Shown in pieces: positions 1,284 to 28,084 of a DNA stretch of 32,000 nucleotides. The stretch spans positions 300,001 through 332,000 of the forward strand of contig NC_010085.1 in assembly GCF_000018465.1 (NCBI RefSeq). The letters run 5' to 3'. The notes under the pieces were generated by a model. That model saw only the letters and a list, made by a program, of their open reading frames with translations, was not told the origin of the DNA and made no database searches. How positions within the stretch are numbered: the first letter of the stretch is position 1; each line of letters opens with the position of its first letter. Source of the stretch: Nitrosopumilus maritimus SCM1 (GTDB lineage: Archaea > Thermoproteota > Nitrososphaeria > Nitrososphaerales > Nitrosopumilaceae). Made by a program: the position numbers and the translations under genes.

Positions 1284-2198
1284 TTAGATTTCAACACCTG
1301 AAAGTGCACCTTTAACATTCTCTACTGCTTTGTTAAAGACTTGCTTTTCTTCATCATTTAGATCTAATTCTATGATTTTTTCTACACCATTCTTTCCTAT
1401 TACTGCAGGAACTCCAATGGTAACATCAGAGTGATCATATTCTCCATCAAGATAAGTTGCTACTGGAATTACTTGTTTTCTGTCTCTTACAACTGCTTCA
1501 ACAATTGCAGAAATTGCATTTCCTGGTGCATGTACTGTAGCACCTTTTAGTTCAATTACTTTTGCTGCAACTTGCTTTGTGTTTTGAACTAGTTCCTCTA
1601 ATTTTTCTTTTGGAAGCAATGATGGTAGTGGAATTCCTGAAACAGATGAAAATCTTGGTAAAGGTAACATGTTTTCACCATGTTCTCCAATTACTAGTGC
1701 TCTAATTGAGTCACGAGAGTGTCCAGTTGCTTCGTGGATAAATTGTCTAAATCTTGATAAATCAAGCATACCTCCCATTCCAAATACTCTACTTCTATCA
1801 AATCCTGATACTTTGTATGTGATGTATGCCATTGGGTCTAATGGATTAGTTACTGGAATAATCATGGAATCATCTGCATATTTTTTCACATTTTCTACCA
1901 CGCTTTTTACAATTGATGCATTAATCTTCAAAAGATCCATACGGGTCATTCCTGGTTTTCGTCCAGAACCTGCAACTACTACTACAATATTGGAACCTTT
2001 CATATCTTCAAAATTATTGGAACCTTTTACTTCAACATCAATTCCTTGTTCTGAAAGCATATGGTTGATATCCATTGCTTCGCCTTGAGGAAGTCCTTCA
2101 GCAACATCTAATAACAAAATTTGATCATCTAATCGTTTTAGTGCTGAAAACAATGCAGCATCTCCGCCTACTTTTCCTGAACCAATTATAGTAATCAT
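1284..2198 (-). CDS. mdh: Malate dehydrogenase, LDH-like family
   Basis: 304 aa. Rossmann GSGKVGG at the N-terminus. Substrate loop [14 protein letters not shown] has Arg at the MDH/LDH discriminating position. Catalytic IGEHG is present. Confidence 0.9.
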
Positions 2199-2288
2199 AA
2201 AAATCGCTGTTAATTTTCAATAATTAAATCTAATGAAATTTCAGACCGATCAGACGAATTTATAAGCATTTTCAATAATTTTTAATCA

Positions 2289-3509
2289 ATGGTTTTGGTA
2301 ATTGATCCTCAAATTGCAGGAATATCTGGGGATATGCTTCTTTCTTCATTAATTGATTTGGGCGCAGATAAGGGAAAGATAATTGATGGAATTAAAAAAT
2401 CTGAACAATTTTTTTCAGATTCTACTATTACAAAAATCGATTTTCAAAAAACCAAAAAAAGAGGAATCGAAGCTATTCAACTCGTTTTAGAAATAGATGA
2501 ACATTCTCATGAAAAAAAAGGCTCTGAAATAAAAAAAGCAATTAATGACTCTACATCAAATTTAGATCTATCAGATAAAGCAAAGATATTTGCTGAATCA
2601 TGTATCAATTCACTCATTTCTTCAGAATCTAAAATTCATGGTGTTCCAGAGGATTCTGTGCATTTTCATGAGGCCTCTAGCATTGATACCCTAGTTGACA
2701 TTGTCGGAATTACAATTGCCTTAGATGATTTGGGATTATTTGATGAAAAAATTATTTGCATGCCTGTTTCTGTAGGTGGTGGAAGCGTAACTTTTTCCCA
2801 TGGCACTATGTCTAATCCTGCCAGTGCAATTTTAGAGATTTTCAAAGATTCTTATCTGAAAATTAAAGGTAATGATGCAAATGCGGAATTGACCACTCCA
2901 ACGGGGGCGTGTATTTTGGCTAATCTGACAAATACTTGTATGGATTATTATCCTGCAATGAAAATTGATTCAATTGGTTATGGTGCAGGGCAAAAAGATT
3001 TTCAAAATTTTTCAAACGTGCTAAAACTAGTTAGAGGCTCTACAAATAACTTGGAAAGTGACTCAGTAAAAATTCTTGAAACTAACGTTGATGATATTTC
3101 AGGAGAAATACTTGGAAATCTAATTGAAAAGATCATGCAAAAAGGTGCTAGAGATGTTTCAATTTATCATGGAATTACAAAAAAAGGAAGACCTACAAAT
3201 TTGGTATCTGTAATATGTGATGATCAAAATATTGATGAAATTGTTGATACATTGGTATTAGAAACTGGTACTTTGGGAATTAGGATATCTGAATCAAATA
3301 GATTTGTTGTACCAAGAACAAATGAAAACATTTCATTAACAATTGATGGAAATTCCTTTGATGTGAGATACAAAAAATCAACATTTAAGGGAAAAACTGA
3401 TTTCAAAATAGAATTTGATGATCTTAAGGATATTTCAAACACCGTTGAAAAATCAATTAAAGAAATAGAATCATTACTTCGAAAAGAAATTGAAAAGTTG
3501 GAGAACTAA
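2289..3509 (+). CDS. larC: LarC-like nickel insertion protein (DUF111 family cyclometallase)
   Basis: 406 aa. The N-terminus MVLVIDPQIAGISGDMLLSSLIDLGAD is the DUF111/LarC signature. The stop at 3509 abuts the larE ATG at 3510. Confidence 0.85.
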   Translation: MVLVIDPQIAGISGDMLLSSLIDLGADKGKIIDGIKKSEQFFSDSTITKIDFQKTKKRGIEAIQLVLEIDEHSHEKKGSEIKKAINDSTSNLDLSDKAKIFAESCINSLISSESKIHGVPEDSVHFHEASSIDTLVDIVGITIALDDLGLFDEKIICMPVSVGGGSVTFSHGTMSNPASAILEIFKDSYLKIKGNDANAELTTPTGACILANLTNTCMDYYPAMKIDSIGYGAGQKDFQNFSNVLKLVRGSTNNLESDSVKILETNVDDISGEILGNLIEKIMQKGARDVSIYHGITKKGRPTNLVSVICDDQNIDEIVDTLVLETGTLGIRISESNRFVVPRTNENISLTIDGNSFDVRYKKSTFKGKTDFKIEFDDLKDISNTVEKSIKEIESLLRKEIEKLEN

Positions 3510-4307
3510 ATGACAAAATTAAATGAACTAGAAAATTGGTTTGCTGATAAAAATAAAGTCATGATTGCATTATCTGGTGGTGTAGATAGTGCTCTTGTTG
3601 CATATGCTGCTTATCAAAAATTAGGTGATTTTGCAATTGCGGTAACTGCTGATTACAAAACCCTTTCTGAGGAAGAACTTCAAACTGCTAAACAAATTTG
3701 CTCTGAAATAGGAATAACTCAATTTTTCTTAGATTATGACGAACTTGAAAATGAAGAATTTACAAAAAATGATTCAACTAGATGTTTTCACTGTAGGCTC
3801 GAATTAGGAGTTCATCTCTTAAAATTGGCAAAAGAACATCACGTAGATGTAATTGTTGATGGAACTAATTTAGATGATTTAGGTGAATATAGGCCAGGAA
3901 TTGATGCCTTACGTCAAAATGGAATTAGAAGTCCTCTTGTTGAAACAAATCTTTCAAAATCACAAATTAGACACATTGCAAAGTCAGTCGGACTATCAGT
4001 TCATGACAAACCTTCAAACTCTTGTTTGGCTTCACGTATACCTTGGGGTCAAAGAGTTACTGCTGAGAGATTAGCTAGAATTGAATTTGGTGAGACTGTT
4101 GTCAAACAACTAACCAAAGTTAAACAAGTTCGTGTTCGTGATTTTAATGGTTCTGCAAAAATTGAAGTAGAAAAAAACGATATTTCTGAATTTAATAATC
4201 TTGTATTAGATAAAATCACAGAAAAACTAAAGCTGATTGGATTTACTTCAGTTGAAATTGATCCAGAAGGGTATAAACCAGGAAAAATTAACGTGATTGC
4301 AGATTGA
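3510..4307 (+). CDS. larE: LarE-like ATP-dependent sulfur transferase (PP-loop ATP pyrophosphatase)
   Basis: 265 aa. PP-loop ALSGGVDSALVAY. Conserved Cys in SNSCLASRIPWG (codon 172) plus a CFHC pair (codons 92/95). Confidence 0.85.
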   Translation: MTKLNELENWFADKNKVMIALSGGVDSALVAYAAYQKLGDFAIAVTADYKTLSEEELQTAKQICSEIGITQFFLDYDELENEEFTKNDSTRCFHCRLELGVHLLKLAKEHHVDVIVDGTNLDDLGEYRPGIDALRQNGIRSPLVETNLSKSQIRHIAKSVGLSVHDKPSNSCLASRIPWGQRVTAERLARIEFGETVVKQLTKVKQVRVRDFNGSAKIEVEKNDISEFNNLVLDKITEKLKLIGFTSVEIDPEGYKPGKINVIAD

Positions 4308-5470
4308 TTTATCTTGATAATGCAGCATCAACTCAAATTCACGATGATGTACTAGAGTCAATGCTTCCATATCTTAAAGAGCAATATGGAAATCCTTCCT
4401 CCATTCATCGTTATGGCAGATTATCTCGGAAGGCAATTGAAAAGGCAAGAAAACAAATTGCGTCTTTGATTAATGCAGATCCTTCTGAAATTTTTATCAC
4501 CTCTGGTGGTACCGAATCAAATAATACTGCGTTACGAGGAATTGCAACAAAATACTCTTCAGGTCAAATCATAACTTCTTCAATTGAACATGATGCAATT
4601 TTAGAGCCATGTAAAAAATTATCTCAAGAAGAATTTGATGTAGTTTACCTTCCTGTAGATAACTTTGGTATGATTAGTCTCTCTAACCTTAAAGATTCTC
4701 TATCTGAAAAAACTAGAGTTGTTTCAATTATGTTTGGTAATAATGAAGTTGGTACAATTCAACCAATTGCAGAAATTGCCAAATTATGTCATGAACACGA
4801 TGTGGTACTTCATACTGATGCTGTACAGGCAATAGGGAAAGTACCAATTGATGTTCATGAATTAGGGGTGGATTTACTATCAATTTCATCTCATAAGCTA
4901 TATGGACCAAAGGGAATAGGTGCTCTGTATATCAAAAAAGACACTCTTCTTAATCCAATGATTTTAGGTGGTGGGCAAGAACATGGATTACGCTCTGGTA
5001 CTGAAAATGTTGCAAATATTGTTGGTTTTGGTAAGGCATGTGATATTGCTAAATCAAATTTGGATGAGAATATTTCTCATATGAAAAAACTCAGAAATCT
5101 TTTGGTCCAAACTGTATCTGATGAAATTTCTCAAGTAACTGTTAATGGTCATCCTGAACGTCATTTGCCAAATAATGCTCATTTTACTTTTCTTGGTGTA
5201 AATGGCGAAGATCTGATTATAAAACTTGATGAGTATGGTGTTGCTGCATCTACTGGTTCGGCATGTTCTGTTCATACTCAAAAGGCATCTCATGTATTAC
5301 AAGCAATGGGATTTTCACACGAGCAAATTACTGGCTCATTAAGATTGACAACTGGAATATTTAATGATCAAAAAGAAATTGAACAAACTGTGGAAATTTT
5401 GAAAAGAGTTGTTGAAGAACTAAGATCTGTGTCTCCATTTAAAGAAAAATATTCTTTCTCAAAAAACTAA
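4304..5470 (+). CDS. Cysteine desulfurase, NifS/IscS-like class V aminotransferase
   Basis: 388 aa. N-terminus IYLDNAAST, PLP-lysine motif SSHKLYGPKGIG, active-site loop STGSACSV. The TTG start overlaps the larE stop by 4 nt (TTGA). Confidence 0.9.
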   Translation: MIYLDNAASTQIHDDVLESMLPYLKEQYGNPSSIHRYGRLSRKAIEKARKQIASLINADPSEIFITSGGTESNNTALRGIATKYSSGQIITSSIEHDAILEPCKKLSQEEFDVVYLPVDNFGMISLSNLKDSLSEKTRVVSIMFGNNEVGTIQPIAEIAKLCHEHDVVLHTDAVQAIGKVPIDVHELGVDLLSISSHKLYGPKGIGALYIKKDTLLNPMILGGGQEHGLRSGTENVANIVGFGKACDIAKSNLDENISHMKKLRNLLVQTVSDEISQVTVNGHPERHLPNNAHFTFLGVNGEDLIIKLDEYGVAASTGSACSVHTQKASHVLQAMGFSHEQITGSLRLTTGIFNDQKEIEQTVEILKRVVEELRSVSPFKEKYSFSKN

Positions 5471-6294
5471 ATTTTAATCTGAAATTTGTTTCTTGTTAGA
5501 ATAATTGCTGTCATAATTCCGACTAGCAAAACAATCATTGCAATTGTTCCAAACTCTGGGACAACATAAGTTCCAATAATTAGAATATCTGTATCTCCTT
5601 GCTCAAAATTAATTGTAATTGTTCTATGATCTGAATGGACTGGTGCTTCCTCATAATCTGCCTCGATTCCATTTGGATTATCTGGACTTGAAATTAAGAT
5701 AATAAATTTTTCATCTTTCCCATCTTGTTTTTCAGCACCTATGAATTCTCTTGGTAATTCTAATGTGATTGAACCTTCATCTGTAGAATTGATGCTTATT
5801 GCTAGTGCAAAATTCTCTGATTCGACCACCATGTCTTCAACTTCTCCTCCTTTAATTGAATATTCTACATCAAATGTCCCATGACTTCCAGCGTCAACTT
5901 CAAAATTGGTTGTAGTTGTCACCACTTCTGATTTTGGAGTGTAACTAAATTCAGTTTCAGCTATAGTTCCACCTGCTACTTCATATGATGCTCTTACTAG
6001 TATTGTTCCTGAATTGGTCCATAATGGTCCTTCTGCAAGAATTGTGTGTGAAAATGTTCCATCTTGGGCTACTTTTATTTGAGCAATTTCTAACATGTTT
6101 CCTTCTCTAAATAATTGCAGTACTACATCTACCCCTGCTATCTTTGTATTTACTTTTCCTGAAACAACAATTGTGTCTCCTTCATCATAATTATTATCAT
6201 CTGTTTGTACAGTAATTGGAGATTCTTGTGCATACACAAAACTTGTAGAAATTATCAATAAGGAAATTACACCATAAAATATTTTAGAATTCAC
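5467..6294 (-). CDS. Secreted PEFG-CTERM sorting-domain protein (divergent tail variant)
   Basis: 275 aa, GTG start. Signal peptide MNSKIFYGVISLLIISTSFVYA. C-terminus is VVPEFG, then a hydrophobic helix, then a basic tail (TRNKFQIKI). The N-terminal module D..Y.EGDTIVVSGKV is shared with its neighbours. Confidence 0.8.
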   Translation of the reverse strand: MNSKIFYGVISLLIISTSFVYAQESPITVQTDDNNYDEGDTIVVSGKVNTKIAGVDVVLQLFREGNMLEIAQIKVAQDGTFSHTILAEGPLWTNSGTILVRASYEVAGGTIAETEFSYTPKSEVVTTTTNFEVDAGSHGTFDVEYSIKGGEVEDMVVESENFALAISINSTDEGSITLELPREFIGAEKQDGKDEKFIILISSPDNPNGIEADYEEAPVHSDHRTITINFEQGDTDILIIGTYVVPEFGTIAMIVLLVGIMTAIILTRNKFQIKI

Positions 6295-6340
6295 AAGTTT
6301 TGAATGGTATGTTTGTATATTTCTTTTACTATCAAAAATG

Positions 6341-6513
6341 AAAAAATGAAAAAAGATGTGATTTTAGTATCTTGGCATAATGCTAAGTCTTGATTTTGCA
6401 GATACTGCAATTATTGAGATAATTGCTACTGCTAGAATCATGGCTGCAATTGTGCCAAACTCTGGGACTACAAAGGTACCAATAATTTCAATTTGTTCAG
6501 TTCCTGCTGGGAA
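6341..6513. repeat. Junction repeat copy 1 (3' end of PEFG gene plus downstream non-coding)
   Basis: Read by eye, it differs from 8208-8381 at only 2 positions (gatgTGatt versus gatgAAatt). It is identical to 7288-7418 over the shared span. Confidence 0.9.
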
Positions 6514-7248
6514 CATGACTGTTACTTTGTTTGCAACAATCTCAACATCATCCCATTCTTCTCCGTCAACTAGTACCATGAAGATACCATCTTGGACTGT
6601 TTTTGATGGTGTTACAGTTAATGTTCCATCATCAGTAGAGCTGATGTTGACAACAATTGAGTTGTCATTTGTATTGAGAGTTGCACTTGTAACTGCACCA
6701 CCTGAAATACTAAATGGTACACAATAACCATTTGCAGTAATCTCATTAGCTCCACATTGTTTGGACTTTTGTGGTGTTTCATAGGTTGGTGTATATGCAA
6801 CTCCTCCCATTAATTGAACTTTGACACTATTGCTCTTTTCAGCACTGCCATAGTTTGCTTTAATGGTGTAGGTACCGCTGTATTTCCACATTGCACCTGC
6901 TGTGTTTAATGTTGTCTCAAAACTACCCTCATCTGTTACAGCGATTTGATCAACTGTGATGATTGAGTTTAGAGGACTCACAACAGTAATTGTAACTGGA
7001 AATCCAGATGCTACATTTGCTACTTGCCCTTGTACTGAAATCATGTCTCCTTGGTCATACCCTGTTTTATCTGTCCAAACAGATACTGGGATATCTGCAC
7101 GCAACATTTCATTTGCTGTTGCTCTTGCATCTGCCATGGTACATCCAACACATGCTTGTGGAATTTCATCTGCATATGCTGCTGACATGGTTAAAGTACC
7201 GACTGCAGTCAAAACGGCTAGTAGCGCGAACGACGTACGGCTGTTCAT
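6364..7248 (-). CDS. Secreted PEFG-CTERM sorting-domain protein
   Basis: 294 aa. Signal peptide ends AAYA. C-terminal 35 aa (VVPEFGTIAAMILAVAIISIIAVSAKSRLSIMPRY) are identical to those of the next two genes. Confidence 0.85.
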   Translation of the reverse strand: MNSRTSFALLAVLTAVGTLTMSAAYADEIPQACVGCTMADARATANEMLRADIPVSVWTDKTGYDQGDMISVQGQVANVASGFPVTITVVSPLNSIITVDQIAVTDEGSFETTLNTAGAMWKYSGTYTIKANYGSAEKSNSVKVQLMGGVAYTPTYETPQKSKQCGANEITANGYCVPFSISGGAVTSATLNTNDNSIVVNISSTDDGTLTVTPSKTVQDGIFMVLVDGEEWDDVEIVANKVTVMFPAGTEQIEIIGTFVVPEFGTIAAMILAVAIISIIAVSAKSRLSIMPRY

Positions 7249-7272
7249 CTTGTTGCGATTTGAACCTGTCTC

Positions 7273-7418
7273 TATTTATGTATATTTAAAAAATGAAAAA
7301 AGATGTGATTTTAGTATCTTGGCATAATGCTAAGTCTTGATTTTGCAGATACTGCAATTATTGAGATAATTGCTACTGCTAGAATCATGGCTGCAATTGT
7401 GCCAAACTCTGGGACTAC
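7273..7418. repeat. Junction repeat copy 2
   Basis: Same sequence as copies 1 and 3, from tatttatgtatatttaaaaaatgaaaaaagatg through ...gtgccaaactctgggactac. Similarity then stops abruptly. Confidence 0.9.
7281..7290 (-). promoter_or_regulatory. TATA-box-like element (TTTAAATATA on the minus strand) for gene 6364..7248
   Basis: About 33 nt upstream of ATG 7248. On the minus strand it is preceded by T-tracts (cttttttcatttttt) that could terminate the upstream gene. It lies inside the junction repeat. Confidence 0.5.
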
Positions 7419-8168
7419 CACGCCGTCTTGAATATCTACCTCAGCTGAAGCAGTATATTTTGGATCGTTAAATTGTTGTGCTGTAACAGTGTAAAAACCA
7501 TCTTGTGTCCATAATGGTCCACCTGTTGTGATTGTTGCTGTAAACTTTCCATCAAGCATTGGTGATACTTGATCAACTGATACTACATTTCCATTTGGAG
7601 CAGTTACGGTTAATGTAATGTCTGCACTTACTCTATCTGTATTTCCTGTAACTACAATTGTATCAGATCCCATTTCAGTTTTGGCGGTACTAATTTCAAT
7701 TCCTGCATCTATTGTAACAACTGGTTTTATTGGTTCAAAGATATCTGAACTATAACTGGATTCAGTCACAGCAGTTTTTTCTGCCATTCCACCATTTACT
7801 TCAACAAGAACTTCCATTGTGTATAGTGCTGCGCTGCCTTGTTGTGCTTTGATTTCATAGAATCCATCTTCGGTCCATGTTGGGCCTATCTTGAATTCAG
7901 TACCAAACATTCCTTCTGCATCTGGTGTTGTCTGACCAATAGCAACTACATTATTTCCACTTGGGGACTTTACAGTAAATGAAACATCAGTGAATGTTGA
8001 AATCGTTTTACCTGTTACGGTAATTGTTTTAGATCCACTGTCTGCCATAGCTGTTAGGGTCATTCCTTGTGTTTGAGCAAATGCATCTTGTTGAATTGAG
8101 GTCACTGAAATTAATGACACTGCCAAAAGGGCTATTGCCATTGATGTTGTAGAACGTTTAAAATTCAT
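7311..8168 (-). CDS. Secreted PEFG-CTERM sorting-domain protein with two copies of the N-terminal beta-sandwich-like module
   Basis: The ORF track starts at TTG 8183. ATG 8168 (MNFKRSTTSMAIALLAV...) gives a better signal peptide and fits the TATA spacing. It has the identical C-terminal 35 aa. Confidence 0.8.
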   Translation of the reverse strand: MNFKRSTTSMAIALLAVSLISVTSIQQDAFAQTQGMTLTAMADSGSKTITVTGKTISTFTDVSFTVKSPSGNNVVAIGQTTPDAEGMFGTEFKIGPTWTEDGFYEIKAQQGSAALYTMEVLVEVNGGMAEKTAVTESSYSSDIFEPIKPVVTIDAGIEISTAKTEMGSDTIVVTGNTDRVSADITLTVTAPNGNVVSVDQVSPMLDGKFTATITTGGPLWTQDGFYTVTAQQFNDPKYTASAEVDIQDGVVVPEFGTIAAMILAVAIISIIAVSAKSRLSIMPRY

Positions 8169-8193
8169 CCTAATTTTCCCCAAGTTACCTTGG

Positions 8194-8381
8194 TATTTAT
8201 GTATATTTAAAAAATGAAAAAAGATGAAATTTTAGTATCTTGGCATAATGCTAAGTCTTGATTTTGCAGATACTGCAATTATTGAGATAATTGCTACTGC
8301 TAGAATCATGGCTGCAATTGTGCCAAACTCTGGGACTACAAAGGTACCAATAATTTCAATTTGTTCAGTTCCTGCTGGGAA
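8194..8381. repeat. Junction repeat copy 3
   Basis: The longest copy. It shares the upstream TATA part with copy 2 and the extended coding part with copy 1. Confidence 0.9.
8202..8211 (-). promoter_or_regulatory. TATA-box-like element (TTTAAATATA on the minus strand) for gene 7311..8168
   Basis: Identical element with the same ~34 nt spacing to ATG 8168. Confidence 0.5.
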
Positions 8382-9071
8382 TGATATGGTTAGTGTTCTA
8401 TCTGTTGTTGATTTTGTTTCATCAAACTCAACTTCTTCTCCGTCAATTAAGACAAAGAAATCATCATCTGCACCATCTGGGAAAGTTGCATCCAACACCG
8501 ATCTAGGAATTGTCAGTGTGATTGATCCATCTTCCGTACCATCAATTGAAACGATTAGTGAATTTGCATCCACATCAGGCATAATTCCAAGTAATTTACC
8601 ACCTGTGATTTCATATCCTACCAAATCAGATGAACCCTGTACTGCAGCGGTTGTATCTGTGACATCTGGATTGACTACATTTTCAACTGGTGGTGCTGTT
8701 GAACCTCCAAATTCAAATGTGGTCTCTGCGGATCTATTCTCACTTCCATATGTTACAATTACTGTGTAAGTTCCTTCCACTTTCATTGTTCCTCCAGCAG
8801 TAATTTCAGCACTGAATTTCTTATCTGCACCTACTGTTATTTGATCAATGGCTACAATGCTGCCATTAGGAGATGTAACAATTAGGCTAACAGGAGTTCC
8901 TGCATATAGATCTCTGACTTCACCTGTTACCATGATAGTTTCACCCTCTGAATAGGATGTCTTATCTGTAGTAACAATAATCGTACTTTGTATTTGTCCA
9001 AATGCTGGTGCCATACCAATACTTGCAACTAGAATTGCTGATAAGGCAAACACCATCAATTGTGATTTCAT
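8232..9071 (-). CDS. Secreted PEFG-CTERM sorting-domain protein
   Basis: 279 aa. Signal peptide MKSQLMVFALSAILVASIGMAPAFG. Its C-terminal 51 aa (FPAGTEQIEIIGTFVVPEFG...PRY) are identical to those of 6364..7248. Confidence 0.85.
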   Translation of the reverse strand: MKSQLMVFALSAILVASIGMAPAFGQIQSTIIVTTDKTSYSEGETIMVTGEVRDLYAGTPVSLIVTSPNGSIVAIDQITVGADKKFSAEITAGGTMKVEGTYTVIVTYGSENRSAETTFEFGGSTAPPVENVVNPDVTDTTAAVQGSSDLVGYEITGGKLLGIMPDVDANSLIVSIDGTEDGSITLTIPRSVLDATFPDGADDDFFVLIDGEEVEFDETKSTTDRTLTISFPAGTEQIEIIGTFVVPEFGTIAAMILAVAIISIIAVSAKSRLSIMPRY

Positions 9072-9251
9072 TGATTTTACGCTTGAATTTATCCTATTTA
9101 AGGTTGTGAAAAGATTAATTGACTAAATAGAAAAATAACTACTTTCTTGACGAATTTCAGATTAGATATATATTAACCTGAGCGTGAGATTTTGACAGTT
9201 TGTGTGTATTCATTACTGTTACATTTAATGTTCGACGTGGGGGTTTTGTAA

Positions 9252-9503: not shown

Positions 9504-12500
9504 ATGGCAGATTCATCCACAAAACGTTGGCCAGTAATTCAAGATATTTTGAAAAGAGAGGGTATTGCACGTCAGCACCTAAACTCATTTGATGAATTTT
9601 TAGAAAGAGGATTACAAAGTATTATCAACGAGGTTGGTCAGATCGATATTGAAAATGCTGAGTACCCTTACAAAATTCAACTAGGTAAAGTCAAATTACA
9701 ACAACCAAGAATGATGGAACTTGATGGTTCTATTACTCATATCACTCCTGCAGAAGCTAGATTGAGAAACGTATCTTATTCTGCACCTGTAATGATGGAA
9801 GCAAGTGTTGTTGAAGATGGAAAAATCCTTGAATCAAGATTTGTCCACATTGGTGATGTTCCCGTTATGGCAAAATCAAACGCTTGTATCTTACACAATT
9901 TTTCTACTCAAAAACTAGTTGAACATGGTGAGGATCCAAACGATCCTGGTGGTTACTTTATCATTAATGGTTCTGAGAGAGTAATTGTTGGATTAGAAGA
10001 TCTTTCTTACAACAAAATCATTGTTGATAGAGAAACAGTAGGTGGAAACATTGTACACAAAGCCAAAGTTTATTCTTCAATTGTTGGCTATCGTGCAAAA
10101 TTAGAACTTGTCATGAAAAATGATGGACTAATTGTTGCCAGAATTCCTGGTTCTCCAGTTGATATTCCAGTAGTTACTTTGATGAGAGCTCTAGGTTTAG
10201 AATCTGATAGAGAGATTGCAGCAGCAGTTTCATTGGTAGATGAACTCCAAGATGAACTAGAAGCATCTTTTGAAAAAGCAGGAGATGTTCCAACTGCAAA
10301 AGATGCCATTGTTTACATCAGTAAGAGAATTGCCCCTGGAATGCTTGAAGAATTTCAGATTAAACGTGCTGAGACTTTACTTGATTGGGGTTTGTTGCCT
10401 CACTTGGGCAAACACCCTGAAAATAGAAAAGAAAAAGCGCAATTCTTGGGAGAAGCAGCTTGTAAATTATTAGAACTAAAACTTGACTGGATTAGACCTG
10501 ATGACAAAGACCACTATGGAAACAAAGTCATTAAATTTGCAGGACAGATGCTTGCAGACTTGTTTAGAACTGCATTTAGAAATCTTGTCCGTGATATGAA
10601 ATATCAATTAGAACGTTCTGGACAAAAACGTGGAATTAATGCAGTAGCTGCTGCAATTCGTCCAGGAATTATTACTGATAAACTAAACAACGCAATTGCC
10701 ACTGGAAACTGGGGTCGAGGCAGAGTAGGTGTTACTCAATTACTTGATAGAACAAACTATCTTTCTACAATTAGTCACCTTAGAAGAATTCAGTCTCCAC
10801 TAAGTAGAACTCAGCCAAACTTTGAAGCAAGAGACCTGCATGCAACACACTTTGGAAGAATTTGTCCAAGTGAAACTCCTGAAGGCTCTAACTGTGGTCT
10901 TGTAAAGAATCTTGCATTATCTGGAATAATTTCTGTAAACGTACCATCTGAAGAAATTGTAGAGAAACTCTATGATCTTGGAACTGTCCACTTCTTTGAT
11001 GCAAAAGAAGATTTGAAGAAAGACGGAACTAGAATCTTTGTTGATGGTAGACTAATTGGATATTACAAAGATGGTGAACAACTAGCAGAATCTCTTAGAG
11101 ACTTAAGAAGAAACTCAAAGATTCATCCACATGTTGGTGTATCCTTCCACAAATCTGAAATTGAAGGTTCAACCCGAAGACTTTACGTAAACTGTAATGC
11201 AGGACGTGTTTTAAGACCACTAATCATCATTAAAGATAACAAACCATTACTTACTGCTGATTTACTAGACAAAATTTCAAAGAAACTCATCTCGTGGACT
11301 GATCTCTTGAGAATGGGTGTTTTGGAAATGATTGATGCAAATGAAGAAGAGAACTGTTATGTCACACTAGATGAAAAGGATACAAAGAAACACACTCACC
11401 TTGAAGTCTTCCCACCAGCAATCCTTGGTGCAGGTGCTTCAATCATTCCATATCCTGAACACAACCAATCTCCAAGAAACACATACGAGTCTGCAATGGC
11501 AAAACAGAGTTTAGGATTCTCAACCCCTATGATGAATACAAGTACATATGTTAGACAACACTTTATGCTATATCCTCAGGTTCCAATAGTTAACACAAAA
11601 GCAATGAAACTTTTGGGATTAGAAGATAGACCTGCAGGTCAGAACTGTGTGGTAGCAGTGTTACCATTTGATGGTTACAACATTGAGGATGCCATCGTTC
11701 TTAGTAAAGCATCAGTTGATAGAGGATTAGGAAGAACATTCTTCTTTAGAATCTATGATGCTGAAGCAAAACAATATCCTGGTGGAATGCGTGACGCATT
11801 TGAAATTCCAAATGCTGAAGATAACATCAGAGGTTACAAGGGAGAACGTGCATACAGACTCTTAGAAGAAGATGGTGTTGTTGCAACAGAAGCTCCAGTA
11901 AAAGGTGGAGATATTTTAATTGGAAAAACTAGTCCTCCAAGATTTATGGAAGAATACCGAGAGTTTGAATCATCTGGTCCTTACAGAAGAGATACATCAA
12001 TTGGTGTTAGACCTTCAGAAACTGGTGTTGTTGATACTGTAGTTATGACCCAATCAAATGAAGGTGGAAAGATGTACAAGATTAGAGCAAGAGATATGAG
12101 AATTCCCGAAATTGGTGACAAGTTTGCATCAAGACATGGACAAAAAGGTGTCTTAGGAATTTTAGCTAAAGCAGAAGATTTGCCATATACTGCAAGTGGA
12201 ATGTCTCCTGATGTTTTGATTAATCCTCATGCATTCCCATCTAGAATGACTGTTGGTATGATGATGGAATCCATATGTGGAAAATCTGCCGCATTACGTG
12301 GAAAGAGATTTGATGGTTCTGCATTTGTTGGAGAAAAAATGGATGAAGTAAGAGAAGTAATGGATGCACATGGCTTTGAATATTCTGGTAAAGAAATAAT
12401 GTATGATGGAAGAACTGGAAAATCATTCCCAGTCGAAGTTTTCATCGGAGTTGTATATTATCAAAAATTACACCACATGGTTGCAGACAAGATTCATGCA

Positions 12501-12851
12501 AGAGCACGTGGACAAGTTCAAATGTTAACAAAACAACCAACAGAAGGAAGAGCAAGAGGTGGTGGCCTTAGATTCGGTGAAATGGAGAGAGATTGTCTTA
12601 TTGCTTATGGCGCTTCTATGATTCTTAAAGACAGATTACTTGACGAGTCTGATAAATCTGATATTTTTGTATGTGAGAGGTGTGGTCTTGTTGCTTATCA
12701 TGATGTTAAACAAAGAAAATATGTTTGCAGAGTTTGTGGTGATAAAGCCAAAGTCTCATCAGTTTCAGTTGCTTATGCATTCAAACTACTCTTACAAGAG
12801 ATGCAGAGCCTCAACGTCGCACCAAGATTGTTAATCAAGGAGAAACTATAA
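9504..12851 (+). CDS. rpoB: DNA-directed RNA polymerase subunit B (unsplit)
   Basis: 1115 aa. Conserved GDKFASRHGQKGV and C-terminal zinc ribbon CERCGLVAYHDVKQRKYVCRVCG. One ORF covers both the B'' and B' regions. Confidence 0.97.
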   Translation: MADSSTKRWPVIQDILKREGIARQHLNSFDEFLERGLQSIINEVGQIDIENAEYPYKIQLGKVKLQQPRMMELDGSITHITPAEARLRNVSYSAPVMMEASVVEDGKILESRFVHIGDVPVMAKSNACILHNFSTQKLVEHGEDPNDPGGYFIINGSERVIVGLEDLSYNKIIVDRETVGGNIVHKAKVYSSIVGYRAKLELVMKNDGLIVARIPGSPVDIPVVTLMRALGLESDREIAAAVSLVDELQDELEASFEKAGDVPTAKDAIVYISKRIAPGMLEEFQIKRAETLLDWGLLPHLGKHPENRKEKAQFLGEAACKLLELKLDWIRPDDKDHYGNKVIKFAGQMLADLFRTAFRNLVRDMKYQLERSGQKRGINAVAAAIRPGIITDKLNNAIATGNWGRGRVGVTQLLDRTNYLSTISHLRRIQSPLSRTQPNFEARDLHATHFGRICPSETPEGSNCGLVKNLALSGIISVNVPSEEIVEKLYDLGTVHFFDAKEDLKKDGTRIFVDGRLIGYYKDGEQLAESLRDLRRNSKIHPHVGVSFHKSEIEGSTRRLYVNCNAGRVLRPLIIIKDNKPLLTADLLDKISKKLISWTDLLRMGVLEMIDANEEENCYVTLDEKDTKKHTHLEVFPPAILGAGASIIPYPEHNQSPRNTYESAMAKQSLGFSTPMMNTSTYVRQHFMLYPQVPIVNTKAMKLLGLEDRPAGQNCVVAVLPFDGYNIEDAIVLSKASVDRGLGRTFFFRIYDAEAKQYPGGMRDAFEIPNAEDNIRGYKGERAYRLLEEDGVVATEAPVKGGDILIGKTSPPRFMEEYREFESSGPYRRDTSIGVRPSETGVVDTVVMTQSNEGGKMYKIRARDMRIPEIGDKFASRHGQKGVLGILAKAEDLPYTASGMSPDVLINPHAFPSRMTVGMMMESICGKSAALRGKRFDGSAFVGEKMDEVREVMDAHGFEYSGKEIMYDGRTGKSFPVEVFIGVVYYQKLHHMVADKIHARARGQVQMLTKQPTEGRARGGGLRFGEMERDCLIAYGASMILKDRLLDESDKSDIFVCERCGLVAYHDVKQRKYVCRVCGDKAKVSSVSVAYAFKLLLQEMQSLNVAPRLLIKEKL

Positions 12852-15800
12852 TGTCGATTCAAGCAGTAAAAGCAATTGATGGAATCAGATTCTCTGTTTG
12901 GTCTCCAACTGAAATCAGAAAATACTCTGTTGCAGAAATCACTGCTCCAGAAACTTATGATGAAGATGGAATGCCTGTTCAAGGAGGTTTGATGGATGGC
13001 AGACTTGGAACACTTGAACCTGGACAAAAATGTCTCACTTGTGGAAACACTGCAGCAAGATGTCCTGGACACTTTGGACATTTGGAATTAGCAGAACCAG
13101 TATTACATATTGCATTTATTGATAACATCTACAAATTACTACAATCAACTTGCCGTTCTTGTGCAAGATTAAAAGTTCCACAAGAAGATCTTAATGTTTT
13201 CAAAACTATTAAAGAGAAACACGCAGCTTATACTGTAATTTCTCAAAAACGTATTCCAGAACAAATTATTGAAAAAGCAAAGAAAGCAAAAGAATGTCCT
13301 CACTGTGGTAAAACACAATACGAACTAATCTTTACAAAACCAACTATCTTTGTAGAAAAAACAGAAATTGGAGAGCACAGATTACTCCCAATAACAATCA
13401 GAGAAAGATTCTCACAAATCATTGATGAAGATTTAGAATTATTATCATATGATCCAGTAACTGCAAGACCTGAATGGTTTGTCTTACAAGCATTCCCTGT
13501 TCCCCCAGTAACTGTTAGACCCTCAATCATTCTAGAAACTGGAATTAGATCTGAAGATGATTTGACTCACAAGATGGTAGATATCATCAGAGTTAATCAG
13601 AGATTAAAAGAAAGTAAAGATGCTGGTACCCCTCCACTAATCGTTCAAGACTTGGTCGACCTATTACAATATCACACTACAACATACTTTGATAACGAAG
13701 TATCTGGAATTCCACAAGCTCATCATCGTTCTGGACGTCCTCTCAAAACCTTAACTCAAAGACTCAAAGGAAAAGAAGGAAGATTCAGAGGTTCACTATC
13801 TGGAAAGAGAGTTGACTTTTCTAGTAGAACTGTAATCTCTCCTGATCCTAACTTGGACTTGAGTGAGGTTGGTGTCCCAGAAGCAGTAGCCATGAAACTA
13901 ACCATTCCTGAAATCGTTACAGAATGGAATATTGAAAGAATGAGAAAACTTGTAATTAATGGACCTGAGAAATTCCCAGGCGTAAACTATATCGTCAGAC
14001 CCGATGGTGTAAAGATTAGACTTGATTTCGTAGAGGATCGCTCTACAATTGCTGAAACACTTGAGATTGGTTACTTGGTAGAAAGACATCTTGCAGATGG
14101 TGACATTGTCATGTTCAACAGACAACCATCACTTCACCAAATGTCTATCATGGCGCACTATGTCCGTGTACTCCCAGGAAAAACATTCAGATTACATCCA
14201 TCCGTTTGTCCTCCTTACAACGCAGACTTTGATGGTGATGAAATGAACCTCCACGTTCCTCAAAGTGAGGAAGCAAGAGCAGAAGCAATTCTCTTAATGA
14301 GAGTTCAAGACCAATTAATCTCACCAAGATATGGTGGTCCAATTATTGGTGCACTAAGAGACTTTGTAACTGGTGCATATCTTCTAACTAAAGACGATAC
14401 AGTATTGACTGTTCAAGAATTCTCAAACCTTGCAATGCTTGGTGGTTATACAGATCCTTTACCAAAACCCGGAACCAAAACCAAAGACGGTCCGGCATAC
14501 ACTGGTAAACAACTTTTCTCGTTGTTCTTACCAAAAGACTTCAACTATGTAATTACATCAAAATGGTCAAAGGGAACAAAAGGACAAGCAAAAGATGTTG
14601 TAATTAAAAATGGTGAACTAATCAGCGGTGTCATTGACAAATCTTCAATTGGTGCAGAAGAACCAGAAAGTGTTCTTCACAGAATTGCAAAAGATTACGG
14701 TAATGCAGTTGGAAAAAGTTTCCTCAACTCTATTCTCATTATGGTAAAACAATTCATCACCCACTATGGCTTCAGTTATGGTTATGGTGACCTTATTGTT
14801 CCTGACAAAGACAAACAACAGATTCTTGATGATATTCAAGGAACTTATGATATTGTAAGTGATTTGACTGATCAATACAAGAAAGGAACACTCAAGCTTA
14901 CTAGAGGTATGAAACCTGAAGAAGCCTTAGAGGCATACATTGTAAATGAATTAGGTAAAGCAAGAGACAAGGCAGGCTCTTCTGCAAATGACTGTCTTCC
15001 AGCAGACAATGCAGGAAAAATCATGGCTACAACAGGTGCAAGAGGTTCATCACTTAACGTAGGTCAGATGGCCGGGGCTCTTGGACAACAATCAAGAAGA
15101 GGAAACAGACTCCATGAGGGTTACAACAACAGAGCATTAACTCACTATCAAGAACATGATGATAATCCTGATGCACATGGATTTGTAAAATCCAATTACA
15201 GAGAGGGTCTATCTGCACTTGAATTCTTCTTCCACGCAATGGGAGGTCGTGAAGGACTTGTAGACACTGCAGTTAGAACACAACAAAGTGGTTACATGCA
15301 GCGTAGATTAATCAACGCATTAGAGCACATTAGATTAGAATATGATGGAACAGTAAGAGATCCACACGGCCACATTGTACAATTCCTTTATGGTGAAGAT
15401 GGAATTGATGTGCAAAAGAGTGATCACGGTGAAGCATTTAACCCAAGCAGATTAATTGAATCTCAAAAAATTATTGATTCTGGCAAAAAGGCAACAAAAG
15501 AAGAGATTGAAACACTAGCTAAGAAATACACAAAGACATTCAATCCAAGATTAACTAAACTTGTAACTGATGCATTACAAAATTCTGAATTAAGCAAAGA
15601 TGGTGTTGAAGCAGTATGTAAGAAAGGACTGTTACTTTACAACAAAGCAAAAGTAGAACCAGGACAAGCAGTTGGAATTATCACTGCACAGTCAATCGGT
15701 GAACCTGGTACTCAGATGACATTAAGAACATTCCACTTTGCAGGAATTAAAGAAAGAAACGTAACATTAGGTCTTCCAAGATTAATTGAACTCGTTGATG

Positions 15801-18104: not shown

Positions 18105-18159
18105 AAAAGTATCAATTATACGTGATTATTAAATAGAAAATTATGTGTTTTTTGGTGTA

Positions 18160-19821
18160 ATGCGATTAATCTTAGGAATCACCCTAGTGTTAACAGCTTT
18201 TACACCACTTGCATTCAATGATGTTTTTGCTGATTCATTTAATGTGAGTTTTAATCAGGATAGTTATCAAACTGGTGACACACTAGTAATTTCTGGTCAA
18301 ATAATTGATTTTGGAATGCCTGTCATTGCTATGAGTATATTTGATCCTGATGAAAAAATCCTCACTGCAAATAGTTTAGAACTTTCTTCTGATGGTAGTT
18401 TCTCAAAAACCATTCCTTTAGAGTCTCCATTTTATGAAATGTCTGGAGATTATCTCATAAAATTAGACTATGGACAAGTCACTGAAGAACATAACTTTGT
18501 AATTGGTGACATTATTTCTGAATCTGAAATTGCTCCTCAGGAGGTTGTTGCACTTGAAATTATGTCTCTCTATACTGAAAAAGAGCATTACTTTGATGGT
18601 GATACAGTCAACATTTTTGGAACTGTGTCATCCATAGATTCTCCTACTATTCTCATAGGAGTTCATGATCCATTTGGAACTCCTGCTGGATTTTATTTTG
18701 GAAATATAAACAATAACTTGGAGTTTTCCACAAACTTTCTAATCAAAGATGGAGTGAATTTTAAAGCTGAAGGAACTTACTCGATTAAAGCTCATTATGC
18801 TGAAACTAGTGTAGAATACTTCTTTGAATATTCTGCAGAATCATCTACAGAAACACAAACAACTGAAGACACAACACAAACAACTGAAGACACAACACAA
18901 ACAACTGAAGACACAACACAAACAACTGAAGACACAACACAAACAACTGAAGACACAACACAAACAACTGAAGACACAACACAAACAACTGAAGACACAA
19001 CACAAACAACTGAAGACACAACACAAACAACTGAAGACAATATACCTAGAGAATCTGTTGAAGAAAAAATAGTTTCACAAAATGAAGCAATAACTGAAAC
19101 AATAAATGAAAAAACAGAAACTGAAACAAAAATTATTACAAAAGAAACTCAAACAAAAAATGATTCTGAAAATATTTTAGAAAATGAAGAACATGATAAT
19201 CTTTCTGTAGAAGATATTGAGCTTGGAAAATTATTAAATCAAATTAATCTCGATTGTGATTCTAGCACTTTTGTTGATACTATTTCTTACTATGATGGTA
19301 TGGGTCCTGCACTTTACAGATTATGTCAATTTGATAGTTCTTTGAATTTTTTTAATGAGTCTTTGACTAGTGATCCTGATAATGTTGAAATTCTTGTCAA
19401 TAAAGGGTCTACACTAGGAAAAATTGGATTTGTTTCTGAAGCAATAGCATATTATGATCATGCTATCTCTCTTGATCCCCAATACCTGCCTGCAAAAAAT
19501 AACAAAGCAAATGCCTTGGCTAATCTTGGAAATCTTGATGATGCCATTTTACTCTACAATGAAATCTTAGAGGAAAATACGAATTACTATACTGCAAGAA
19601 CAAATCTCAATACTGCATTATTACTAAAATCTGAAACTTCTGAAACTTCTGATGTGATAAGTACTGTTAAATCTGAAATTGAAACTTCACCTGAAAATAC
19701 TTCACCTGAAAACATTTTCCCTGAAAAAACAATCTCAACAGAAAACAAAAATGAAACACAATCAAACTTTTTTGAAGAATTAACTCGTGTATTTTCATCT
19801 TTGTTTGGTTTTACTGAGTGA
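18160..19821 (+). CDS. Secreted protein: two N-terminal modules like those of the PEFG proteins, a TTEDTTQ repeat linker, and C-terminal TPR repeats
   Basis: The ORF track starts at GTG 18145. ATG 18160 gives the signal peptide MRLILGITLVLTAFTPLAFNDVFA and sits ~25 nt after the TATA-like attattaaatag. TPR-like helices run from ALYRLCQFDSSLNFFNESL to LNTALLL. Confidence 0.8.
   Translation: MRLILGITLVLTAFTPLAFNDVFADSFNVSFNQDSYQTGDTLVISGQIIDFGMPVIAMSIFDPDEKILTANSLELSSDGSFSKTIPLESPFYEMSGDYLIKLDYGQVTEEHNFVIGDIISESEIAPQEVVALEIMSLYTEKEHYFDGDTVNIFGTVSSIDSPTILIGVHDPFGTPAGFYFGNINNNLEFSTNFLIKDGVNFKAEGTYSIKAHYAETSVEYFFEYSAESSTETQTTEDTTQTTEDTTQTTEDTTQTTEDTTQTTEDTTQTTEDTTQTTEDTTQTTEDTTQTTEDNIPRESVEEKIVSQNEAITETINEKTETETKIITKETQTKNDSENILENEEHDNLSVEDIELGKLLNQINLDCDSSTFVDTISYYDGMGPALYRLCQFDSSLNFFNESLTSDPDNVEILVNKGSTLGKIGFVSEAIAYYDHAISLDPQYLPAKNNKANALANLGNLDDAILLYNEILEENTNYYTARTNLNTALLLKSETSETSDVISTVKSEIETSPENTSPENIFPEKTISTENKNETQSNFFEELTRVFSSLFGFTE
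18853..19038. repeat. Perfect 21-bp tandem repeat, ~9 copies (acaacacaaacaactgaagac), in-frame coding for TTEDTTQ
   Basis: aactgaagac recurs at 18861, 18882, ... 19029 with an exact 21-nt period. No substitutions were seen. Confidence 0.95.
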
Positions 19822-26497: not shown

Positions 26498-28084
26498 TTA
26501 GTTTGCAGGAACTGCAATACCTCTATCTATCATCTTTAGTGCAGTATCAGCTTTTAGACACATTGCTACACCATTTGATGTTTTCATGACAAGACTGTAT
26601 CCTTCACGACATTCTACCTCTGATGCATCAACACCAGCTGCAATCTGAATTCGTGGAGAAATCCATGCTAGTTGCATGTCTTTTGCCTTTTCAATGAATT
26701 CTTCTCTAAGTTGTTGTTTCTCTTCACTAGTCATCTCTGCTGCTCTTTCACGAAGTTCTGATTTGAAAGCCTTCATCTCTGCAATTCTATCATGAATCAT
26801 AGATTTTCTTTCATCAGAGACACTGTGTTTCATCTTTTTCATGTGTTCTTTGAACTTCATCTTTAATTCAGAATGTTTCTTGTCAAGATCACCATATTTT
26901 TCACGATATTTTTTCTTGATTTCATCCATTCTTTCATCTGAGATGTCATATTTTGTCATGATCATTGCTTTGAGATGTTTAGATTTTTCTGAAAATTTCA
27001 TGTCATGATGTTTTTCCATCATTTTCTCCTTCATGGAATCATGATGTTTCTTTTTGTAGTCTGCTTTTTCTTCAGGAGTCATAGAACACCAATTAGAAAT
27101 TCTATCGAGTTTTACTGCATCTGTAATTTCTGCAGCACGATCTGATTCAGACATTGCACATAGTTTGTCATAATTCATATGATGTTTTTTCTCATGCATT
27201 TTTTCTTTCATGTGTGCTTTGTATGTCTCTAGATTATCTTTGATGAATGTTTTTCGTTCAGCTTCGTCAGCTTCACAATATGTATTCATCTTTGTTTGGT
27301 GCTCTTCGGTTTTGTCATGCTCAGCAATGTATGCCTTTTTGTCTTCATCAGACATTACACAATAATTCTCTAGTTTTTCTCTAAAATCTACTGCATGATC
27401 TCTTTTGTAGTCAGCTGCATATTTTTTGATGGCAGTTTTGATTTCTCCTTTGTAATTTTCCAAAAGATCCTCAACTGCATCTTGTTCTTCATCAGACATT
27501 TCACAATAGTTTGTTAGTCTATCTCTGAATTGCTCAAGTATGGGACGGTCTGCAAATAATTTGCGTTTATCCTCATCGGTAGCTGCACAAAATCTGTCTA
27601 ACAAATCTCCAAGATCATATTCACCATCATGTTCTTTTTCTCCAGGGAAATTCTCTCTGATAAATTCATCAATGGCATCATCTCTTTCATCTTCAGACAT
27701 TTCACAATAATTTGCTAATCTGTCTGCAAACTGTTCAATCCTTGGATGGTCTGCAAAGAACTGACGTTTTTCCTCATCAGTCATCTCACAGAAATGCTCT
27801 AATCTGTCATCAAGATCTGCATGTTTATCGTATCTATCATCGTCATCGTATCTATCATCGTCATCGTATCTATCATCGTCATCGTATCTATCATCGTCAT
27901 CGTATCTATCATCGTCATCGTATCTATCATCGTCATCGTATCTATCATCGTCATCGTATCTATCATCGTCATCGTATCTATCATCATCCATGTCATCATC
28001 TACTTGTGCAAAAGCAGGACCTGCAGATACACCAAGTACCAAAATCATGGATAAAACAACGCTTAGAAGTTGTGTACTATTCAT
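26498..28084 (-). CDS. Secreted, highly acidic repeat protein: RYDDDD x9, then 8 single-Cys helical repeats, His/Met-rich blocks, and a two-Cys C-terminal module
   Basis: 528 aa. Signal peptide MNSTQLLSVVLSMILVLGVSAGPAFA. Repeats are of the form L..YCEMSDEE[KR]. HMKEKMHEKKHHM and KKHHDSMKEKMMEKHHDM blocks are present. I recognise no family. Confidence 0.8.
   Translation of the reverse strand: MNSTQLLSVVLSMILVLGVSAGPAFAQVDDDMDDDRYDDDDRYDDDDRYDDDDRYDDDDRYDDDDRYDDDDRYDDDDRYDDDDRYDKHADLDDRLEHFCEMTDEEKRQFFADHPRIEQFADRLANYCEMSEDERDDAIDEFIRENFPGEKEHDGEYDLGDLLDRFCAATDEDKRKLFADRPILEQFRDRLTNYCEMSDEEQDAVEDLLENYKGEIKTAIKKYAADYKRDHAVDFREKLENYCVMSDEDKKAYIAEHDKTEEHQTKMNTYCEADEAERKTFIKDNLETYKAHMKEKMHEKKHHMNYDKLCAMSESDRAAEITDAVKLDRISNWCSMTPEEKADYKKKHHDSMKEKMMEKHHDMKFSEKSKHLKAMIMTKYDISDERMDEIKKKYREKYGDLDKKHSELKMKFKEHMKKMKHSVSDERKSMIHDRIAEMKAFKSELRERAAEMTSEEKQQLREEFIEKAKDMQLAWISPRIQIAAGVDASEVECREGYSLVMKTSNGVAMCLKADTALKMIDRGIAVPAN
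27826..27987. repeat. Perfect 18-bp tandem repeat, ~9 copies (cgtatctatcatcgtcat on the plus strand), coding for RYDDDD on the minus strand
   Basis: cgtatc recurs at 27829, 27847, ... 27973 with an exact 18-nt period. Confidence 0.95.

Follow-up and report, generated by a model that had tools for sequence, protein, structure and literature searches.

The 32,000-nucleotide stretch of Nitrosopumilus maritimus SCM1 analysed here (NC_010085.1, positions 300,001 to 332,000 of the forward strand; "the window" throughout, with coordinates counted from its first letter) carries four minus-strand genes, named D, C, B and A in the order in which they lie between a gene for a nifS-like cysteine desulfurase (4304-5470) and rpoH/rpoB. 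All four encode PEFG-CTERM proteins, and the 3' ends of three of them, together with the junctions that follow, are close to identical. Gene A (8232..9071) encodes a surface protein of 279 amino acids with a signal-peptide-like N-terminal segment, two beta-sandwich domains and a C-terminal transmembrane helix. Gene B (7311..8168) encodes a protein of 285 amino acids with an internally duplicated N-terminal domain, counted from the ATG at 8168; this start was favoured over the TTG at 8183 given in the list of open reading frames (ORFs), and the orthologues begin MNFKRSTTS. Exact look-ups of proteins A and B, the latter with either start, returned no record. The internal repeat of gene B (7473-7520 and 7839-7886) corresponds to two copies of the N-terminal beta-sandwich domain about 366 nucleotides (nt) apart. 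Gene C (6364..7248) encodes 294 amino acids, and gene D (5467..6294), which starts with GTG, encodes 275 and has a diverged tail of its own (5470-5565) that lies outside the homogenised set.

The four proteins matched the PEFG-CTERM model TIGR04296 with 45.8-46.8 bits (45.9 for protein A) against a cut-off of 25 (E ~1e-12). In these matches the entire 30-position model was aligned and the matched segment ended 2-5 residues before the stop, in agreement with the proposal of a first-pass annotation, made from the sequence alone, that the constant 3' end is a sorting signal. The tail has the expected layout of motif, transmembrane helix and basic cluster (PEFG, then TIAAMILAVAIISIIAV, then SAKSRLSIMPRY), and a six-frame search of the window found no PEFG tails besides those of genes A-D. 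The N-terminus MKSQLMVFALSAILVASIGMAPAFGQ appears signal-peptide-like by inspection. An AlphaFold2 model of protein A (mean predicted local distance difference test score, pLDDT, of 66) placed strands at residues 31-121 and 144-241 and a helix at 249-273. Its best Foldseek matches were complement C3 and alpha-2-macroglobulin chains, at a low template modelling score of ~0.3, which we read as matches to their macroglobulin (MG) domains. The Pfam MG2 matches of the ectodomains were below threshold and the structure search returned only generic MG- or immunoglobulin (Ig)-like beta-sandwiches, so the assignment of a specific ectodomain function was dropped; the words "copper-binding" in some UniRef names would be a putative label only. 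On sequence and model, the products of A-D are best described as putative secreted, membrane-anchored Ig/MG-like surface proteins. Published work describes PEFG-CTERM proteins of marine ammonia oxidisers as abundant and responsive to H2O2 (PMC6593220) and as co-expressed with amo genes (bioRxiv 10.1101/175141); neither paper is tied to genes A-D. Among the ORFs of these 32 kb of genome that were screened or read by eye, none was recognised as an archaeosortase gene.

The repeat was mapped with a repeat finder, a four-way alignment, a blastn search of the entire window with its core and a base-by-base comparison that took the stop codons as anchors, and all four agreed. It occurs as three direct copies, each read on the minus strand. 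Copy 1 (6341..6513) covers the 3' end of C and the C-to-D junction, with 49 codons, the stop and 23 nt of non-coding DNA; copy 2 (7273..7418) covers the 3' end of B and the B-to-C junction, with 35 codons, the stop and 38 nt of non-coding DNA that include the promoter-like boxes of gene C; copy 3 (8194..8381) covers the 3' end of A and the A-to-B junction, with 49 codons, the stop and 38 nt that include the promoter-like boxes of gene B. Copies 1 and 2 are 100% identical over 131 base pairs (bp; 6341-6471 and 7288-7418), copies 1 and 3 differ by 2 mismatches over 173 bp (6341-6513 and 8209-8381), and copies 2 and 3 differ by the same 2 mismatches over 146 bp (7273-7418 and 8194-8339). In the 131-bp core common to all three, the sole differences are thus the 2 nt of copy 3 at 8227-8228, both non-coding and 4-5 nt past the stop, where TT replaces the CA of the other copies. 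The blastn search of the core found no further copy within the 32-kb window. The near-identical triple repeat described in the first-pass annotation, with its coordinates and its 2-nt non-coding difference, was exactly reproduced; of the 35-51 terminal codons assigned there to the copies, the lower value stood and the upper had to be corrected to 49, since the shared coding part comprises 35 codons when the three copies are compared together and 49 when copies 1 and 3 are compared alone.

The coding segment of the sorting signal, VVPEFGTIAAMILAVAIISIIAVSAKSRLSIMPRY, lies at 6367..6471 on the minus strand, with identical DNA at 7314-7418 and 8235-8339, and is followed by stops at 6364-6366, 7311-7313 and 8232-8234. 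Outside the repeat, the paralogues have only 30-35% protein identity, 46-51% DNA identity and 35-44% identity at third codon positions, so that the comparison of the window with itself set 2 differing nt inside the repeat against a DNA identity near one half outside it. The probability of 131 matches in 131 positions at p=0.6 is ~1e-29, which excludes chance; residual similarity is likewise no explanation. An assembly artefact is an unlikely source of the identity, as the array lies on a contig of 1,645,259 bp and related species show the same structure in many contigs of chromosome scale (1.2-2.5 Mb).

Read on the minus strand, each copy contains the last codons, TAA, AATCACAT and CTTTTTTCATTTTTT, to which copies 2 and 3 add AAATATACATAAATA. 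The element CTTTTTTCATTTTTT is a double oligo-T run (6341..6355, also 7288-7302 and 8209-8223), two runs of six T placed 10-23 nt past each stop, and among 156 tails from about 55 species 80-98% have a T at these positions. Archaeal RNA polymerase terminates at oligo-T, and on this ground the T-runs probably end transcription. Two TATA-like boxes, TTTAAATATA and CATAAATA, lie upstream of gene C (7273..7290, minus strand), with the same sequence at 8194-8211 upstream of gene B. The distal box, TTTAAATATA (7281-7290 and 8202-8211), stands 32-33 nt from the next ATG in both genes, given the start at 8168 for gene B, and each of the four genes has a proximal box at a distance of 21-25 nt from its start codon. 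Analogous minus-strand boxes precede gene D (GAAATATA, 6316-6323) and gene A (CTTAAATAGG, 9093-9102). The archaeal TATA box is centred ~26-27 nt upstream of the transcription start. A role of these boxes as promoters of the next genes is plausible by this analogy, and the proximal box, judged from its position, would give leaderless mRNAs. Across 44-59 species, conservation reaches 75-90% or more for the two T6 runs and for the box TTTAAATATACATAAATA, and the presence of both elements at the junction, as first annotated, is hence well supported.

Eighty related loci (L001-L080) were fetched with a nifS anchor and each PEFG-tailed ORF was classified by its ectodomain. The order nifS-D-C-B-A-rpoH was found in all 40 of the loci that span the whole array, in both Nitrosopumilus and Nitrosarchaeum, and in these the ectodomains are orthologous by position, with 45-95% amino acid identity to those of the window; orthologues of gene A, 45-95% identical, were present in 45 loci. 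The D-C-B-A array predates the split between Nitrosopumilus and Nitrosarchaeum. Two more chromosome-scale loci, L063 and L034, lack A beside B, and locus L061 reads D-B-A with a C-type junction after B. In L063, part of a 2.39-Mb chromosome record, an inversion splits the array at the B/A junction (1848-5538 versus 11169-13840), leaving D-C-B in place and putting rpoB-rpoH-A upstream of larE/nifS in the opposite orientation. A distant A/C-like paralogue of 26-38% identity is also found ~6.5 kb upstream of nifS in relatives (L002:3265-3480, L034:3005-3496, L046:3185-3619 and L070:3206-3526), at a position whose equivalent falls outside the window.

For genes C, B and A of 43 genomes, the final 108 nt were compared with one another. 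Paralogous tails within a genome had a nucleotide identity of 0.959, with 12% of the pairs 100% identical, against 0.914 for orthologous and 0.908 for non-orthologous tails between genomes. The near equality of the last two values means that the orthology signal is almost erased in the tails. At codons for the same amino acid, codon identity was 0.925 within genomes and 0.83 between them. The nearest neighbour of a tail (n=129) lay in the same genome only in 50 cases and in another genome only in 53, with 26 ties. Several lineages have amino acid changes that are common to the three paralogues of one genome: SARSRL...PRI in L010, IIVIS in L017, TIAVMIL in Nitrosarchaeum and AISSKSRLSIVPRY in L055.

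The closest relatives of the window (L001-L011) allow the exchanges to be followed base by base, since three haplotypes can be told apart over the last ~25 coding nt and the first 23 non-coding nt. The C haplotype has the coding end CTTAGCATTATGCCAAGATAC and downstream AATCACATCTTTTTTCATTTTTT; the B haplotype has the coding end CTGAGTATCATACCAAGATAC and the same downstream AATCACATCTTTTTTCATTTTTT; the A haplotype ends in ...AGAATC and continues with AATTTCATCTTTTTTCTCTTTTT. In L005 each gene retains its own haplotype. In the window all three genes are of C type, with a patchy remnant past the stop of gene A, where the A-type TT is kept and the flanking and further positions are of C type. Locus L010 is of A type throughout at the coding end, L003 has the B type in both C and B, and L007 and L009 have the A type in C. 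To judge from these sequences, the haplotype patterns are those of independent, short and sometimes discontinuous conversions with different donors. The 23-38 nt of non-coding DNA are homogenised as well. The tracts end at the edge of usable homology, at -108 nt for pairs with B, at up to -150 nt for C and A, and at +23 or +38 nt downstream; the repeat boundaries are sharp, with DNA similarity undetectable beyond them. Gene B lacks the second-domain segment FPAGTEQIEIIGTF that is common to C and A, and its conversion tracts therefore stop at -108 nt.

The tail of gene D is ~70-85% similar to the core over ~50 nt, the value of 85% holding only over a 52-nt stretch. Its third-position identity across species is 0.53-0.55, compared with 0.80-0.82 for the tails of A, B and C, which bears out the earlier suggestion that this gene, with its diverged tail, escapes homogenisation. 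It does so normally rather than always, as the D tail of L034 (11170-11290) is chimeric: 53 of the first 57 nt after the PEFG codons are identical to the C tail of the same genome, and the sequence then becomes D-type. On sequence grounds, this looks like a rare conversion into a gene that normally escapes.

These results very probably reflect concerted evolution of the 3' modules by short-tract gene conversion among three ancient tandem paralogues, A, B and C. Of the two causes put forward in the first-pass annotation for the identity, ongoing gene conversion is the one that fits, given that tail identity is higher within than between genomes and that haplotypes are reshuffled in close relatives. 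In the proposed mechanism, non-reciprocal recombination between direct repeats ~0.9 kb apart would repeatedly copy one tail onto another, and the ectodomain and promoter-proximal flanks, too diverged to recombine, would set the limits of the tracts. In the window genome, a C-type tail would recently have replaced the B- and A-type tails, leaving the patchy tract after the stop of gene A. The module has four parts: a coding segment for the sorting signal (PEFG motif, transmembrane helix and basic tail), the stop, a pair of oligo-T runs at which transcription probably ends, and a fourth part, the TATA-like boxes belonging to the gene that follows, which is present in two of the copies. Three points weigh against this interpretation. 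Conversion is read from patterns in genome sequences and no event was seen directly; only the 12% of within-genome pairs noted above are 100% identical, which makes the window the homogeneous extreme; and the tails are unusually conserved between species, with third positions at 0.81-0.82, beyond what neutral gene conversion would predict.

The last of these points is the basis of the alternative that fares best, in which no exchange takes place and the copies stay alike through purifying selection acting directly on the nucleotides; an mRNA 3' element, a binding site for a protein or a small RNA, or extreme codon selection could be the cause. In a sliding-window control with 35-codon windows over nine neighbouring genes including rpoB, the A, B and C tails had the highest third-position identity in the 43 genomes (0.81-0.82). 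The best window of rpoB reached 0.79 with a mean of 0.69, and nifS, larE and rpoB ranged from 0.58 to 0.69. The distance from these genes and from the D tail favours selection, as do ~20 third positions that are invariant in at least 150 of the 156 tails and a local hairpin, GCAATTAT-CTCA-ATAATTGC. However, selection of this kind leaves unexplained the lineage-specific substitutions, synonymous and non-coding ones included, that are common to the paralogues of one genome, and it leaves unexplained the haplotype reshuffling among close relatives. The best rpoB windows also make the excess a modest one, and an initial description of the tail as frozen at the nucleotide level (codon identity 0.82 vs 0.57) was toned down on their account.

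An RNA element was unsupported. The module folded no more stably than shuffled sequences (z = -1.09), the alifold consensus was weak (-5.4) and did not contain the hairpin, and double changes occurred in only 1-2 of 155 sequences, so that neither a consistent consensus structure nor covariation emerged from the 155 unique tails. A search of the tail module against Rfam gave nothing near threshold, the sole match scoring 20 bits against a gathering score of 86. Two antisense ORFs (6380-6727 and 8248-8769) were rejected as a source of constraint: their wobble positions fall on the wobble positions of the sense strand's reading frame, in the frame that is most often open by chance, and they therefore cannot explain the third-position conservation. 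Taken together, we regard selection without exchange as improbable. The conservation excess of the tails over rpoB is real but modest, and the slow-down is not predicted by neutral gene conversion, so some extra constraint must act in addition to the exchanges. This constraint could come from codon selection that gains in efficacy within a converting family, or from a function of the sequence itself. We prefer codon-level purifying selection in strongly expressed genes, which may be strengthened by their membership in such a family; multigene-family theory, as developed by Mano and Innan in 2008, is said to predict more effective or stronger purifying selection in converting segments.

A second alternative, close to one raised in the first-pass annotation, is a cassette system that would give surface variation, with ectodomains often deleted, duplicated or exchanged on a constant anchor and promoter through recombination of the direct repeats. 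Metagenome contigs were scanned with a 45-nt degenerate tail pattern, which yielded 120 loci with 183 tails. Adjacencies expected from crossing-over were indeed present: beside the normal A-to-B (33), B-to-C (28) and C-to-D (38) pairs, these loci contained B-to-D (5), A-to-D (1), C-to-C (3), B-to-B (3) and C-to-B (1). The B-to-D contigs come from several diverged lineages, and the D-B-A arrangement of L061, with its C-type junction after B, also speaks for deletion. These adjacencies could reflect unequal crossing-over, but they fit equally well with graph loops or mis-joins through a repeat longer than the k-mer, and they were discarded as proof of crossing-over since loops and mis-joins give the same picture. 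The C-to-C contig L167 self-overlaps at 100% identity; the other same-gene pairs are 69-93% identical over the overlap. Repeat-mediated deletion is plausible but unproven.

The remaining evidence argues against ectodomain swapping. The comparison of orthologous arrays in relatives gave an unchanging order and positional orthology of the ectodomains in the 40 whole-array loci. All 157 metagenomic tails with enough upstream sequence to be classified follow an A (47), B (53) or C (57) ectodomain, so the constant anchor is confined to these three ectodomains. Silent cassettes are lacking, as all four genes are complete and have their own start and promoter-like box. A cassette system is, on this evidence, highly improbable.

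The repeat has a further consequence for the assembly of these genomes. Of 74 related contigs, 34 end inside the array (for instance L006, L032, L051, L058 and L062), and many of these break off 870-1010 nt beyond their final complete tail, a point that falls within the following repeat copy. Repeats that exceed the k-mer in length are hence general in this family, an observation that also counts in favour of gene conversion. Short-read assemblies of Nitrosopumilaceae are systematically broken by the repeat, which probably also gives rise to false adjacencies and to loop contigs such as L167.

The weakest explanation, that a very recent tandem duplication (the other cause offered in the first-pass annotation) or an assembly collapse or chimera made the identical ends, would account for 100% identity including synonymous sites but is scarcely credible: the remainder of the genes is saturated at third positions (35-44%), A, B and C all have orthologues across two genera and the positional orthology in 40 loci refutes recent duplication in an array older than the split of those genera, and the 1.65-Mb source contig and the independent chromosome-scale contigs of the same structure speak against collapse.

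In relatives, the same junctions are also the site of recurrent insertions. The B-A or C-B junction contains an insertion of 2.4-4.5 kb in L007 (13621-16177), L012 (13861-17032), L023 (13852-17668), L030 (13871-16428), L076 (12931-17342) and L072 (in the C-B gap), with possible remnants of insertions in L075 and L070 and eight more cases in the metagenome loci. The elements encode a transposase of ~370 amino acids with a DDE_Tnp_IS240 domain (Pfam, 1e-12 to 1e-14), an rve match and an N-terminal SWIM zinc finger. They have termini of GGTTCTGT or GATTCTGT with terminal inverted repeats of 27-63 nt, and carry passenger genes such as those for Fic, NurA and DUF3467. Insertion always occurred at plus-strand TATATTTAAAAA^ with an 8-bp duplication of TTAAAAAN, in either orientation, at a point exactly between the T-run and the TATA-like box that leaves both intact. 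At least 15 lineages and contigs have insertions at this same point, and these involve both orientations and both junctions. Among five transposase homologues sampled, which were chosen only for their long contigs, three were in this junction (L202/L203, with the insertion at L202:3207-8835, L204 and L207) and two were elsewhere (L201 and L205). L202/L203 contains two different elements in tandem, each beside a copy of the target.

In the window, the target TTAAAAAN is present and empty at both junctions (7286..7293 on the plus strand, and 8207-8214). With 15 TTAAAAA sites in the 32 kb, which scales to roughly 770 in a genome, the choice of target looks more specific than this 7-mer. Members of the IS6 (IS26) family have termini of the type GGTTCTG..., make an 8-bp target duplication and are small single-gene elements of ~0.8 kb. 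The elements described here have IS6 traits in their DDE_Tnp_IS240 match, termini and 8-bp duplication; unlike IS6 (IS26), they measure 2.4-5.6 kb and have long terminal inverted repeats, passenger genes and a transposase with a SWIM finger. One could imagine that the homogenised junction does more than record recombination, and that the boundary between T-run and TATA box acts as a sequence-specific landing pad for cargo-bearing IS6-like transposons across the Nitrosopumilaceae, in the manner of attTn7. An element landing between terminator and promoter would harm neither. Gene conversion, by keeping two or three copies of the target identical, and the unusual conservation of the module across species would then maintain a protected site for incoming genes beside strongly expressed surface-protein genes. 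We put this forward only tentatively and consider it rather doubtful in this full form. The recurrence of insertions at exactly the same base suggests, for its part, that this abundant marine lineage harbours a target-specific mobile element. Insertion at this junction is not mentioned in a survey of thaumarchaeal mobile elements (PMC6563490).

Some other features of the window can be recorded here. The convergent nifS-like (plus strand) and D (minus strand) genes overlap by 4 nt at their stop codons (5467-5470), and the nifS-like protein is 94% identical to that of Nitrosopumilus metagenome-assembled genomes. Before nifS lie larB (474-1250), larC (2289-3509), larE (3510-4307) and a malate dehydrogenase gene (mdh), a neighbourhood that is kept in the related loci. 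Two perfect in-frame tandem repeats were also found, one of 21 nt in 9.0 copies (18852-19039) within the ORF at 18145-19821 and one of 18 nt in 8.8 copies (27827-27985) within the ORF at 26498-28084, the product of which has a C-terminal WING-49 domain. The units of both are 100% identical, and for this reason their copy number is likely to vary between strains.

Several known systems resemble parts of this picture. In tufA/tufB of Salmonella and in rRNA operons, paralogues are likewise more similar than orthologues, exchange is non-reciprocal and tracts are limited by the divergence of the flanks. Here, in contrast, only a 3' module of 130-190 bp is homogenised and the rest of the genes is at ~30% protein identity; the copies lie in tandem as direct repeats with a spacing of 0.9 kb, and the state persists across an archaeal family. 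Marker exchange in Sulfolobus acidocaldarius, offered as an analogy only, is reported to proceed by short, discontinuous tracts as well; those described here are ~25-173 nt long and sometimes patchy. Neisseria pilE/pilS and Borrelia vlsE are likewise surface-protein genes that use constant segments as recombination homology, but in those systems a variable region is diversified from silent donor cassettes, whereas here the constant end is homogenised, silent cassettes are absent and the ectodomains are stable. The archaeosortase systems (PGF-CTERM/ArtA in Haloferax volcanii; PEFG-CTERM, TIGR04296, in Thaumarchaeota) have the same tripartite C-terminal signal of motif, transmembrane helix and basic residues on secreted proteins, and by this likeness the products of A-D would be processed by an archaeosortase; homogenisation of the signal at the DNA level is no part of the system as described. 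We know of no experimental demonstration of the processing of a PEFG-CTERM protein. Our literature searches on PEFG-CTERM, on gene conversion in Nitrosopumilus and on thaumarchaeal IS6 elements returned no description of the homogenisation or of the insertion hot spot, and a search for papers that map transcript ends in this organism found none. The phenomenon is thus a new and well-documented instance of a known process, segmental concerted evolution, and not a cassette-swapping system.

In practical terms, the tail sequence cannot be used to infer the orthology of these proteins, and the repeat can create false gene adjacencies in metagenomes. For the family itself, the finding means that three genes have retained a uniform module of 130-190 bp throughout the existence of the Nitrosopumilaceae, while the rest of these genes has come down to ~30% identity. 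Such a pattern implies one processing and anchoring signal, strongly constrained and common to the three proteins, a point that bears on the proposed PEFG-CTERM/archaeosortase pathway of ammonia-oxidising archaea.

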